Source of the DNA: Candidatus Bathyarchaeia archaeon
GTDB taxonomy: Archaea; Thermoproteota; Bathyarchaeia; Bathyarchaeales; Bathycorpusculaceae
NCBI GenBank assembly: GCA_049512075.1
Contig: JBEKXL010000001.1
Span: 1 to 64,000 of the forward strand
DNA: 64,000 nt
Direction of reading: 5' to 3'
Of the stretch, positions 18,163 to 21,892 are shown one piece after another (position 1 is the stretch's first letter; the number at the start of each line of letters is the position of its first letter). A model generated the notes under the pieces. The model was given only the letters and a program-made list of their open reading frames with translations. It ran no database searches and had not been told where the DNA came from. The position numbers were made by a program, and so were the translations under genes.

Positions 18163-18435
18163 TTAGGCTTGTTTTTGGAGTTCCTCAAGTTTCTCTACGA
18201 CTAGGATGTTTGCGTAGTCGTCAACGGTTATGCCCATGCTTTCAGCTTGTGTTTTCAATTTCTGATGAAGGTTCCCTGAAAAGAATAATCGCTTCACACA
18301 ACCTTCTCGGATACTGTCACATTTATCATGCATCAAGAGGGCGATTACAGAATTGTCCTCATTGACACCGTAGAAAGCTTTGAGTTTCTGAAAGAGTCTT
18401 GAGTTTCTTTCGTCTAAACTTACGTTCAGTTTCAT
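18163..18435 (-). CDS. Small putative ribbon-helix-helix DNA-binding protein
   Basis: MKLNVSLDE beta-helix-helix pattern and a second LHQKLKTQAESMGITVDDY unit. Confidence 0.55.
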   Translation of the reverse strand: MKLNVSLDERNSRLFQKLKAFYGVNEDNSVIALLMHDKCDSIREGCVKRLFFSGNLHQKLKTQAESMGITVDDYANILVVEKLEELQKQA

Positions 18436-18463
18436 GTTCTCTTTTCTCCTTTAGGCGAGCTGT

Positions 18464-18736
18464 TTAGGCTTCTACAGTGAGTCCAGTTATTTCCTTGAAT
18501 ACTGGGTCCAGATTGTATCGTTCAGCCAGTCTTCGCGGGGTCGGCACAAAGCAGTCTCCGGCGTCTATGTCGGCTCTCACTAGACCCACTATGCAGCGTT
18601 CCAAGTATTGAGTTGCTGTTTCTCCGAGTGATTCTTCACTGTCTCGCAGAAGCTTCATTACGCTCTTGGGAATTTTCACGGATACTACTTCAAACTCGAT
18701 TTTGTCTTTACTTTTTGATTCCATGTTTTCTTTCAC
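18464..18736 (-). CDS. Small CopG/RHH-like protein
   Basis: EVVSVKIPKSVMKLL..TATQYLERCI. Confidence 0.6.
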   Translation of the reverse strand: MKENMESKSKDKIEFEVVSVKIPKSVMKLLRDSEESLGETATQYLERCIVGLVRADIDAGDCFVPTPRRLAERYNLDPVFKEITGLTVEA

Positions 18737-18862
18737 CTTTTAGGCATCCTAGTGTATTATACGACAGGGCATATATTTCTTTTGCACCATAGGTGAAACT
18801 ATAGGTGATGTATAGATACTATCCTGATGAAGGAAAACGAAAAGAAGGAATAGATACAGATT

Positions 18863-19343
18863 ATGCGAGGCTTGCATGGGATAATCGTTTATAGTATCTT
18901 GCCTCGACTAGCCGAGAAGCTAAAGCGAGAAGGATTGATTTCAGATTACGATCGTTAAGCAAGAAAAAATCGAGATTTCTAAGGCCTTTTCTAAAATCAG
19001 GATATATCCTGATCTTGTTCTTCACACGTCAAACGGAAGGAAGCTTCTGGTTGAAATAGCTAACCCAAGAGATCCCAAGAGATTCATAGGAGAACTGATT
19101 TATCCAAAAATGCTTCTTTGGCGTAAGAAGATCACGGCCGACATAGTTTTCGTCCTGAACCCACAAGAACAGGAAACACATAAGAGAAGTCTGTCTCAGA
19201 TACTTGTGTTAGATAGGTTCTTGCGCTTACCAAAAGGTTCTAGAACAGTCACATGGCCAGGTGAAGACGCGGCTTACAATATCCTGAAAGCCTTCATAAC
19301 ATCGATCCAGTCACGCGCATTGAAAAAAGAAAAGAAGGAATAG
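18863..19343 (+). pseudogene. Frameshifted PD-(D/E)xK-like nuclease
   Basis: MRGLHGII..LISDY, frameshift near 18952, then IYPDLVLHTSNGRKLLVEIANP continuing into track ORF 19110-19343. Confidence 0.55.
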
Positions 19344-19439
19344 ACCATGAAAGACAGAGAACCAAGCTTCACTTTAACCTTAGTCTCTCTCCATTTCTCA
19401 AGAATGTTGTATTGACAAACTGTTTTTAACCTTCAAAAC

Positions 19440-19775
19440 TTGCCTTTTCCATTGTGGCTATTCTTGCTTTCACCATGCGAAATCCAAAAGTTCTATTTGG
19501 ATTATCCTCTCAAATTGCCGAGCGTCTGGAATCTAAGCCGGAAGCATTTCCGCGTTTCGCTAAGTGAAGGCAGGTTTGTCAAGCTTAACCGTTTCGAGAA
19601 CCGCTTGAACGTCCATGATTTGAAGTTTTACTGTTGGAAGCTCAAACCCATGCACGTCTATTTTTCCGTTCTGAACTGGCTGTTTCCTGAGCGTGTCGGC
19701 AAGAAGTACAAGGTTCGGTACTGCGTGCCGCCAAATGGCGAGTTCGTCATCGATGTCGATGCCTATCTATCGATC
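19440..19775 (+). pseudogene. N-terminal fragment of an archaeo-eukaryotic primase (PriS/primpol-like)
   Basis: KFY..RKHFR..PMHVYFSVLNW..GEFVIDVD (AEP motif I DxD); motifs II and III absent; ORF continues to 19880 in unrelated-looking sequence. Confidence 0.7.
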
Positions 19776-19940
19776 GCGTTCTCTATCCCCGTGGAAAACG
19801 ATAAGACTGCCTTCCACTTTCTTAACGCGTGCCAATCCAGCCTTTATTACCTAGAGGTTTCTTCTATAATTAAACTCTAGATGCGTTTTTATTTCACCCC
19901 AAGATAAGTTCTAGATGCATATAAATCGAGATGAGAAAAA

Positions 19941-20747
19941 ATGAAGACAAAACACATAGTCATAGTGATACTGGCATTGCTGATGCTTTCAAGCGCTACG
20001 CTATTGGCAACCGTAAAGGCCCCCGCAACTTGGCCAAATTTGCCGTTAACAACGGTTCAACTTACAGTCGTTAACGGAACAACATCCTACTTCATATCCA
20101 CACTCAGCGGCGTTCCCGCAGGATTCGACGTTCACAACGGAGTCTACCCAGGCTGGTGCGTAGACCGCTCAGTAACAATGATTAGAAGCGTATCTCACAA
20201 CGTAAAACTATATTCCAGCCTACCCCCGACATCAGTCCTAAGCAGCATTAACTGGCGCGCAATCAACTACATCCTAAACCACAAACAAGGCAATATGATG
20301 GATGTTCAACAAGCAATATGGCACTTCACTGACGCGTTTTCACCAATCAGTGCAACTGCTCAAGCAATGGTCAACGCTGCAAACGCGAATCCGACTTATG
20401 ACCCAACCAGCGGTGCCATTCTAGCAGTAATATGCCTTCGACAGACCGACAGTGGTGTACAGAACTCTATCATAGAACTCGGCAGGTTGGCAGGGCTTTC
20501 GCCTGGATACTGGAAGCATAACGTCAACGTTTACAATGGTGGCCAAGGAAGCTACAGTGGAGATCCCCACATCACACCAGCGCAATTAGAGGCTTACGCG
20601 GCGTACATAGCGGCGAATTTCCATCCAGGCTTCACTCTCGCATGGGCCAACACAGAGTTCCAGAACAACGCATACAAAAACATGTGGCTGACTATTGCCA
20701 ACTGGTTCAACGCAGCAGCAGGCCGACTACCATACGCTGGAGACTAA
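19941..20747 (+). CDS. Secreted protein with thioester-domain (TED/TQXA)-like motifs
   Basis: Signal peptide; GWCVD, VQQAIWHFTD, GVQNSII; C-terminal SPGYWKHN domain; T-rich terminator-like tract at about 20771-20790. Confidence 0.7.
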   Translation: MKTKHIVIVILALLMLSSATLLATVKAPATWPNLPLTTVQLTVVNGTTSYFISTLSGVPAGFDVHNGVYPGWCVDRSVTMIRSVSHNVKLYSSLPPTSVLSSINWRAINYILNHKQGNMMDVQQAIWHFTDAFSPISATAQAMVNAANANPTYDPTSGAILAVICLRQTDSGVQNSIIELGRLAGLSPGYWKHNVNVYNGGQGSYSGDPHITPAQLEAYAAYIAANFHPGFTLAWANTEFQNNAYKNMWLTIANWFNAAAGRLPYAGD

Positions 20748-21138
20748 ATACAGCACAATCCAAACCAAACCCCTTTTTTTATTCTTCTTTCGGAATGAAT
20801 GTTCAGAAGTAACATAGTTTAAGCTATCAGCCCACGTGCTGGACTCTAACGGGTCGATGAAACCATGCACTAAGAACAGGGTGAGGGCAGCATAGTGAGG
20901 GTAACCACGATGACGCCTTCACAATCAATTCATTCAAGGTTAAGAGTATGCCAAAACAGAAGATAAGAAACGTGACCGAGTGTTCAGCCTGCCCTAAGAG
21001 TGGAACTCAATACTGTTGGACTGAGTGTTCACATAACATCTGGAACCCTAAAATTATTCAATCAAGATAGACCCTTTTGGCTCAAACTTATCTAGTCTTG
21101 AACATAGAACAGAAAAAAAGAGGGTTTTGTTTTGGAGG

Positions 21139-21688
21139 TCAGCTCTTGGTTATAGTTACTTCTGCGTTTAATTGTAAGAATGCAAAGAATGGGCCTGGGA
21201 TGTAGTAGAAGGTTAACCCGCCTAGGGTTGCTGTTGCCGAAGCGTCTCTTATAGGGCCGTTAATGATAACGTGGTAGGCTCCCGCAACATAATGATAATT
21301 CTGGTTCACGGCTGGACGGATTGCCTGCCACTGAGCAGTTAGCTGGGTGGGCACACCAAAATAGTCAACTGTCGTCGAAAGCGTTGCTAGGCCCATGCTC
21401 CACTTAAACTCGCCCATAGCCAAATAATTGTCAGCGAACCATATTTGACTGCCAGACGAATCAGTCACTATCGCGAGCATGATGGTTTCAAAGTTTGGAG
21501 TAAACTCGGTTCCCATGCTCGTGATAACGATTATGGTCATGTAGTAGCCGTGGTCAGGATTGTAGAGACTCCAGGCAACTGCCCCTTTTTCCAACAAAGT
21601 ACCCAGTGGTGGCTCCTGATGCGAAGATTGGAGTTGCCAGCATCAAAAAGGCGATGGCTAAAACTGGTATCAACAATTTCTTATTCAT
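21139..21688 (-). pseudogene. Secreted beta-rich protein with +1 frameshift after the signal peptide
   Basis: ATG at 21688 gives MNKKLLIPVLAIAFLMLATPIFASGATTGYFVGK; one extra base in AAAAAGGGG near 21590 separates it from GAVAWSLYNPDH. Confidence 0.65.
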
Positions 21689-21892
21689 TCTCATCTTTCT
21701 CCTCTATATTTGATGCACCATAAACCAGTGCATCCGTTGTATCAATAGTGCGACGAAGGAGATAACACTTCTGGAACGCTCTTCCATAGCGCACGCATAT
21801 ATGGTTAACGTAAACAAGTGTTGAACCGGAGCCACGTTTTTGAGTATGCCGTCGTTCTGCTCATGGAACAAGAAAAGGAAGAATAAGCGGCT

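Follow-up and report, generated by a model that had tools for sequence, protein, structure and literature searches.

Does the gene at positions 19941 to 20747 encode a thioester domain (TED) of the kind that the cited literature places in Gram-positive bacteria, and what would such a domain do in an archaeon? According to the available sections of PMC4450167 and PMC13685950, TEDs build their thioester spontaneously, releasing ammonia, and the thioester then reacts with a lysine of the target to yield an isopeptide bond; in SfbI this exchange can be reversed and is tuned by pH. The SfbI-fibrinogen bond uses a Lys amine. We examined the gene, its relatives and its surroundings in the window, that is, the whole analysed stretch of 64,000 nucleotides. 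The window is archaeal, because the Kae1, Bud32 and archaeal proteasome beta subunit encoded in it exceed the NCBIfam cut-offs.

An exported archaeal protein with thioester-domain motifs

The gene codes for a protein of 268 residues with the following features (counts refer to a pooled set of 341 domains).

19941..20747, plus strand: gene for an exported protein of 268 aa (signal peptide, thioester domain and PGxWK domain), with 238 homologues
19941..20021, plus strand: putative Sec signal peptide, residues 1-27, read by eye, its pattern retained among homologues
20028..20486, plus strand: predicted compact class I-like TED, residues ~30-182, six strands and three helices, from the AlphaFold2 model and fold matches
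20157..20159, plus strand: Cys73, predicted thioester Cys, in W-C-V-D at the end of strand C; 340/341 domains
20307..20321, plus strand: Gln123-x-Ala-Ile-Trp127, TQxxPhiW-type motif of the central helix, with Val for Thr; Gln123 in 323/341, Trp127 in 331/341
20433..20435, plus strand: Cys165, variable hydrophobic core position in strand P; Cys in 213/341, otherwise mostly Ala, Leu, Val or Ile
20460..20462, plus strand: Gln174, predicted thioester Gln, in V-Q-N-S-I-I, preceding the last strand; 334/341
20487..20744, plus strand: C-terminal PGxWK domain, 86 aa, four helices; G-L-S-P-G-Y-W-K-H ... A-N-W-F-N-A-A-A-G

A preliminary description of the gene had drawn attention to the motifs GWCVD, VQQAIWHFTD, AVICL, GVQNSII and SPGYWKHN. 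All are present in the open reading frame 19941-20747 and follow one another as claimed: GWCVD with Cys73, VQQAIWHFTD with Gln123 and Trp127, AVICL with Cys165, GVQNSII with Gln174, and LSPGYWKHN at residues 186-194. The signal peptide that it had proposed can likewise be recognised by eye, as a basic n-region followed by hydrophobic residues 6-23 and V-K-A at residues 25-27, with no lipobox Cys. From this pattern, cleavage after V-K-A27 is likely.

The Pfam TED profile (PF08341) scored the full protein at 12.8 bits (E 0.16) and the domain alone at 15.1 bits, both under the gathering cut-off of 22 bits, and reached E<=0.05 in 8 of 76 relatives, with a best E of 0.0051. NCBIfam returned 0 matches for the 268-residue protein, and neither the protein nor a 131-row profile matched any PDB chain by sequence, TEDs included.

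A scan for bacterial-type promoters and terminators gave nothing above shuffled sequences at the gene. By eye, the T-rich ends of the gene and of its convergent neighbour (20760-20792, plus strand; 21100-21140, minus strand) carry similar 'CCAAA(C/A)CAAA(A)CCC + T-run' stretches, which are probably archaeal T-rich terminators. In three sediment or wetland metatranscriptomes, contigs of relatives cover the gene span (43, 16 and 65 records) with almost bare flanks; 0, 0 and 5 of these records, respectively, are at least 99% identical to the gene, with shares of 0.04-0.09. We did not count this coverage as proof of expression, because the runs were chosen via this gene and the contigs carry neither strand nor level. 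Three relatives' contigs in one metatranscriptome begin at the start codon (19941-19942), which hints weakly that the transcript may be leaderless, although contigs cannot show RNA starts.

The N-terminal domain is predicted to adopt a compact TED fold

We modelled the mature protein with AlphaFold2 from a 131-row alignment (mean pLDDT 93.5, pTM 0.79). The N-terminal domain of the model comprises strands at residues 39-45, 51-56, 67-73, 86-92, 160-167 and 176-181 and helices at 105-113, 119-131 and 138-148, in full-length numbering. Comparison with TED structures, which the preliminary description had suggested, returned solely TEDs with Z 7.7-10.8: they occupy all of the top 8 places among 48,161 representative chains, and the next row has Z 3.9. 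CpTIE (5a0g) is the best match (Z 10.8, rmsd 3.3, 132 residues aligned), followed by Cpa 2xi9 (10.6), FNE (9.5), BaTIE (9.5), SfbI (9.3), EfmTIE86 (8.8), PnTIE (8.4) and SaTIE (7.7); sequence identity to solved TEDs in the structural alignments is 8-14%. Foldseek counted 11 rows at E<=0.001, and the 10 that are listed are all TEDs. For the same domain, the ESM Atlas gave TED-annotated clusters at 0.88, with TED on 11-13% of members, which we treat as a lead only. On the strength of the model, residues 30-182 almost certainly adopt a bacterial-type TED fold. The proposed identity of the domain is borne out by this fold, which only TEDs match, and by the Cys/Gln conservation and coevolution described below.

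The preliminary description had placed the domain in class I. As set out in the available part of PMC6194298, a class I TED combines a six-strand barrel with a three-helix bundle and a linker of ~10 residues between helix alpha3 and strand P, and its helix alpha0 is an N-terminal indel of 15-20 residues between strand D and helix alpha1. The archaeal domain resembles the class I domains CpTIE-TED (5A0G), Cpa-TED (2XI9, 4C0Z), SfbI-TED (5A0L), PnTIE-TED (5A0N) and FNE (5DCQ), with fold Z-scores of 8.4-10.8. It shares with them the barrel and bundle, the Cys at the end of strand C, a Q-x-x-I-W central helix, the Gln at the last strand, the short alpha3-strand P linker (11 residues in the model) and the N-terminal place after a signal peptide. 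Unlike them, it belongs to an archaeal host, has the low identity given above, lies under the PF08341 cut-off, and carries W-C for [YFL]-C and V/I-Q for T-Q. Helix alpha0 is reduced in the model to a 3-residue turn within a 12-residue connection, so that the class I indel of 15-20 residues is missing. Unlike Gram-positive TIE proteins, the protein has no isopeptide or ester stalk and no LPXTG sortase anchor (no such match in Pfam or NCBIfam); the PGxWK domain follows instead. With the class II TEDs (BaTIE 6FWV, EfmTIE86 6FWY, SaTIE 6FX6 and TIE of pLS20) the domain shares the lack of a full alpha0, and their upper lobe matches it with Z 7.7-9.5, whereas the ~75-residue beta-sandwich insertion or slipknot of that class is absent from both the sequence and the model.

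Spacing sets the domain apart from both classes. Cys73 and Gln174 lie 101 residues apart (97-126 in the family, median 104), compared with 129 in CpTIE, 149 in Cpa, 152 in SfbI, 153 in PnTIE and 171-204 in class II, as computed from the residue numbers given in the available text of PMC4450167, PMC6194298 and 10.1101/743393. The archaeal domain is the most compact TED among those compared. The class I assignment agrees with the motif order, the short linker and the missing beta-sandwich, and disagrees with a helix alpha0 cut to one turn. As the domain fully fits neither class, given its class I-like linker, reduced alpha0, lack of a sandwich and short spacing, we describe it as a minimal TED.

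Secreted archaeal proteins with a predicted Cys-Gln thioester also include the alpha-2-macroglobulin/TEP homologues described in the available part of PMC8416519. These have an unrelated fold and a CxEQ motif, with Cys and Gln three residues apart as opposed to 101 apart on two beta-strands here. The CxEQ motif of the alpha-helical-toroid alpha-2-macroglobulin/complement proteins is absent from the 268-residue sequence.

Conservation and coevolution point to a Cys73-Gln174 pair

A search with the full protein found 238 homologues at E<=0.001, the best 120 of which were aligned, and a search with residues 27-182 found 925 clusters at 50% identity, the best 150 of which were taken. The distant set holds 151 domain rows, consisting of the query and 141 more distant representatives. 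In addition, a genome scan by a helix-1 pattern that contains neither Cys73 nor Gln174 yielded 141 relatives; the best 80 of these gave 78 loci, and the 78 named loci plus 7 further loci (4 duplicates) form a set of 89 domains.

Among the best 120 of the 238 homologues, Cys73 is kept in 116/116 rows with a residue, Trp127 in 120/120, Gln174 in 119/120 and Cys165 in 113/120. The corresponding counts in the 151 distant rows are 148/149 for Cys73, 141/151 for Gln123, 149/151 for Trp127, 140/142 for Gln174 and 76/144 for Cys165, and here the neighbours of Gln174 vary (Val173 in 39%, Asn175 in 9%, Ser176 in 32%). Cys73 and Gln174 are both retained in 89/89 genome-locus domains, Cys165 in 35/89. In the 341 pooled rows, Cys73 is found 340 times, Gln174 334 times (four of the misses are gaps) and Cys165 213 times. 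Cys73 and Gln174 are thus the most conserved residues of the TED amid variable neighbours, and the motifs are beyond chance because Cys73, Trp127 and Gln174 are near-invariant while their flanks vary. The residue before Cys73 is Trp in 336/341 domains in place of the textbook [YFL], and the rest of the C-Phi-zeta motif fits (W-C-V-D); Val or Ile replaces the Thr ahead of Gln123 in TQxxPhiW, within helix 119-131. One relative (P0183), with Arg for the Cys and Pro for the Gln, is possibly a decayed copy.

Counted back from the last aligned residue, Gln174 falls on Gln267 of CpTIE, Gln575 of Cpa, Gln247 of PnTIE and Gln261 of SfbI chain B, with SfbI chain A off by one, provided that the last 8 residues align without gaps and that the entries are numbered as in the papers. 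Gln174 precedes the DSSP-assigned last strand of the AlphaFold2 model by two residues. The Gln of VQNS, put forward earlier as the candidate reactive residue, is Gln174 and falls in register with the Gln that forms the bond in solved class I TEDs.

We then asked the alignment for couplings by mean-field DCA (341 rows, effective number 276, 11,026 pairs), for which three column shuffles set a noise level of top z 4.4-5.4. The pair V74-I177 ranks 2 of 11,026 with z 9.4 (z 7.8 in 240 distant rows), which sets the strand of Cys73 beside that of Gln174. The direct Cys73-Gln174 coupling has z 4.3, which drops to 2.8 once 7 degenerate or truncated rows are taken out, and D75-N175 has z 3.8; both lie inside the shuffle range, as expected for near-invariant columns. 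Cys165 couples to L90 (z 8.7), V88 and I178.

These results bear on two readings in which no thioester would form. The preliminary description had set a disulfide between Cys73 and the Cys of AVICL against its own proposal; the TED-like motifs would then be coincidental. The retention of Cys165 among the best 120 homologues fits such a bond, but the residue is variable in the wider family, being present in about half of the distant domains (the 76/144 above), in 0/16 bacterial and in 0/4 Asgard-labelled ones, where Cys73 stays. Cys73-Cys165 ranks 8,197 of 11,026 pairs, and since Cys165 couples to core strands and not to Cys73, it is a core residue and the disulfide fails. With the TED-matching fold also against it, we rejected the disulfide at the family level and regard it as extremely improbable. 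A TED-like fold that holds no stable internal thioester deserves somewhat more weight while still being quite unlikely. Cys73 and Gln174 would then owe their conservation to catalysis or structure, for instance to an acyl-transfer or amidase-like site with an outside substrate or to non-covalent ligand binding. The Trp for [YFL], the V/I for Thr and a Cys-Gln stretch 28-100 residues shorter than in solved TEDs speak in favour of this reading. Against this, the available sections of PMC4450167 report that 12/12 TEDs tested are about 17 Da light, that only Cys and Gln are fully conserved among TEDs, and that the Thr-Gln-Trp motif is neither fully conserved nor essential, the helix motif being dispensable. 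By analogy with these domains, the Cys73-Gln174 thioester very probably forms.

The TED is joined to exchangeable C-terminal modules

The PGxWK domain, modelled alone, forms four helices (AlphaFold2 pLDDT 96.2). Its best match among solved structures has Z 3.8, with no Foldseek match at E<=0.001, which does not imply a new fold. It has no Pfam or NCBIfam match, the ESM Atlas gave clusters at 0.79 without a family (a lead only), and our literature searches found nothing relevant on the PGxWK motif. Among proteins of 470-2000 aa, none bearing the domain was found, which is weak evidence. The domain occurs in 11 of 401 class-level genomes and is always C-terminal, four times behind a TED and seven times without one. 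Several of the TED-less proteins amount to little beyond a signal peptide and the domain (L093, L094 and L098 among them), several with an 'ACE' motif, and hence a Cys, ahead of the domain. A longer form is found in Bathyarchaeia and Thermoplasmatota proteins. Because it occurs with and without a TED and also alone behind a signal peptide, the PGxWK domain is an independent secreted module, and because stand-alone forms exist it is not simply a stalk. The earlier proposal that an SPGYWKHN domain replaces the stalk holds for its position, the domain being one of several mutually exclusive C-terminal modules; it does not account for the TED-less and stand-alone forms. Judged by position and architecture, the chance that PGxWK serves as a retention module, holding or matrix-binding, is about even.

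For the tails of relatives, we labelled 85 non-duplicate domains (90 minus the window's own and four duplicates) by regular expressions. The labels gave a PEF-like tail for 14, another membrane tail for 19, PGxWK for 11, a post-COAP-1-like domain for 4 and a dockerin-like one for 1; of the remainder, 8 stop after the TED and 28 are of other kinds or truncated. No protein carries two of the four motif labels (0/85). An exosortase-family gene (TIGR04178, 67 bits against a cut-off of 23) lies within the locus of 9/14 PEF-like genes versus 0/11 PGxWK genes. Across 88 loci, the recurrent neighbours among nameable genes are exosortase, flippase, glycosyltransferases and housekeeping-type genes. More distant relatives show PEP-CTERM, a T9SS tail, SdrD-type repeats and PKD domains. 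Two or three TEDs per chain are found in 8 of 141 representatives (P0121, P0126, P0129, P0130, P0141, P0142, P0206 and P0207), one of which has three TEDs and a T9SS tail; these multi-TED proteins are candidate multivalent covalent cross-linkers. As read from the sequences, the TED is a head on exchangeable C-terminal tails, and the family context is one of surface display.

In these respects the family recalls the PEF-CTERM/archaeosortase C and PEP-CTERM/exosortase systems, since relatives carry such tails and often adjoin an exosortase-family gene, a flippase and glycosyltransferases. Unlike proteins sorted by those systems, the 268-residue protein has no such tail and no membrane anchor, and no exosortase gene adjoins it. 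Attachment of this protein to its own cell is something that we infer and do not see, because it lacks an anchor or sorting tail and no PGxWK-type gene has an exosortase beside it.

Distribution of the family and genomic setting

The nearest named relatives of the TED are Bathyarchaeia, up to 77% identical, so that the host most probably belongs to this group as well. As labelled, the 78 loci (drawn from the best 80 of 141 relatives, and so skewed to the closest ones) comprise 27 from Bathyarchaeia, 30 from Thermoplasmatota or 'Euryarchaeota/Methanobacteriota', 4 Asgard-labelled, 1 from an unclassified archaeon and 15 from bacteria (7 Verrucomicrobiota, 2 Planctomycetota, 2 Chloroflexota, 1 Acidobacteriota, 1 Myxococcota and 2 unclassified). 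One further locus bears an acidobacterial genus name; we counted it with the Bathyarchaeia because its neighbour genes match the host genome at 46-74%. The survey of archaeal homologues that the preliminary description had called for shows the family, at 925 clusters, to be large and to extend over Bathyarchaeia, Thermoplasmatota, diderm bacteria and a few genomes labelled as Asgard. In a quick tree, two of the four Asgard-labelled rows fall within Bathyarchaeia rows and may be misbinned; as this tree leaves deep branches open, we claim neither an origin nor a direction of transfer. In the host order, 26/301 sampled genomes match, 3 of the 26 weakly, and with a narrower profile in the host class 9/301 genomes match, 2 of the 9 by the C-domain alone. 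This patchy presence across order and class marks an accessory gene.

Upstream of the gene lies a small accessory island (18163-19880). It holds two small genes (18163-18435 and 18464-18736), with paralogues on contigs C4, C9 and C10, and a decayed open reading frame (19416-19880), the DNA of which recurs on C8 and C18. By eye, a motif in the decayed frame resembles that of a primase small-subunit fragment, with no library match. The convergent neighbour on the minus strand (21139-21703) looks secreted, with its signal peptide (frame ending at 21554) and its body (21139-21642) in different frames. The break lies at an A/G run near 21590 and is an assembly error, a pseudogene or slippage. This neighbour has no homologue in the host genome or in the relatives' loci examined and no Pfam match.

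Elsewhere in the host genome, a second TED paralogue of 243 aa (C1:297084-297815, minus strand) keeps both Cys and Gln and ends in 'VGG...membrane helix...basic tail'; by eye, the open reading frames around it read like tyrosine recombinases. About six other host open reading frames, on contigs C3, C8, C11 and C37, share a similar 'VGG[FY]...membrane helix + basic' tail, a candidate for a so far undescribed sorting signal in these archaea. A PEF-like pattern fits 16 host open reading frames, and the genome has two exosortase-family homologues (C30:570-2684 and C11:50743-52269), which are not beside the window gene.

A covalent linker as the proposed function

What would such a protein do? The explanation that we prefer overall, with a probability of roughly 0.7, is an exported covalent linker. 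After export and cleavage of the signal peptide, Cys73 would attack the side chain of Gln174, with ammonia being lost and a buried Cys-Gln thioester formed. The TED would dock on a target, an amine of which would open the thioester to leave an isopeptide bond to Gln174. PGxWK would hold the protein non-covalently to the cell envelope or within the extracellular matrix, in the position occupied in relatives by PEF-like exosortase tails, membrane anchors, dockerin-like or post-COAP-1 domains. Overall, the archaeal cell or its matrix would become covalently bound to other cells, to matrix proteins or to proteinaceous particles of the sediment. By analogy with characterised TEDs, a role in adhesion or matrix cross-linking is probable.

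The same thioester could also serve a protein that is set free. A freely secreted covalent tag or trap, as opposed to an adhesin of the producing cell, would mark or disable foreign cells, virions or enzymes, much as complement or alpha-2-macroglobulin does. It would fit the missing anchor, the 8/85 relatives that end with the TED (some with little beyond signal peptide and TED), the patchy distribution at order level and the position of the gene in a small accessory island. We consider it unlikely, given that 33/85 relatives are membrane- or exosortase-anchored, that the protein contains no effector domain, and that the characterised TEDs of this fold in the available parts of PMC4450167 and PMC8092201 are adhesins. 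A still smaller chance, and a slim one, goes to a mating-pair adhesin of a mobile element, similar to TIE of plasmid pLS20, which requires its Cys68 for conjugation as reported in the available part of PMC8092201. The membrane-tailed paralogue on C1 among its tyrosine-recombinase-like frames, and the placement of the window gene beside small repeated genes and a decayed frame, would agree with that role, but the nameable recurrent neighbours in the 88 loci include no conjugation gene, several neighbours being unnamed.

Implications of an archaeal TED

Taken together, fold, conservation and coevolution indicate that the gene encodes a real, compact and unannotated TED in an archaeon, with a predicted thioester. 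Full-text literature searches, which largely leave out subscription journals, found no report of a bacterial-type TED in archaea. The archaeal 'TED' in the available part of PMC8416519 and the TED-like domain in that of 10.64898/2026.10.19.760177 both have the unrelated complement-type fold. New TED clusters are described in PMC9210967, the main text of which, in its available part, does not mention archaea. Figure S7 of PMC12617251, as far as that source is available, labels TEDs among Gram-positive, Gram-negative and archaeal adhesins and may bear on novelty.

Beyond the single gene, we lean towards the view that a third, minimal class of TED is common to sediment archaea and many diderm bacteria; it would form a reactive Cys-Gln bond and be mounted on at least six kinds of holding module, among them the so far undescribed PGxWK domain. 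This class would cover Bathyarchaeia, Thermoplasmatota and some Asgard-labelled genomes, with tandem two- or three-headed cross-linkers in some relatives. If this is true, the domain of ~150 aa would be the smallest thioester warhead among those compared. The chemistry itself would be already known. Being small and modelled with high confidence, the domain may offer a compact scaffold for protein ligation tools, and its predicted reactivity could serve to capture the natural target out of lysates of sediment or enrichments.

An archaeal TED, missed by Pfam and NCBIfam, would carry covalent adhesion into a second domain of life and would offer a cheaply testable mechanism by which sediment archaea not yet in culture could bind partners or particles. 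Covalent adhesion would then, if the minimal class is real, be a general prokaryotic route to aggregates and matrices, reaching beyond the Gram-positive colonisers of hosts.
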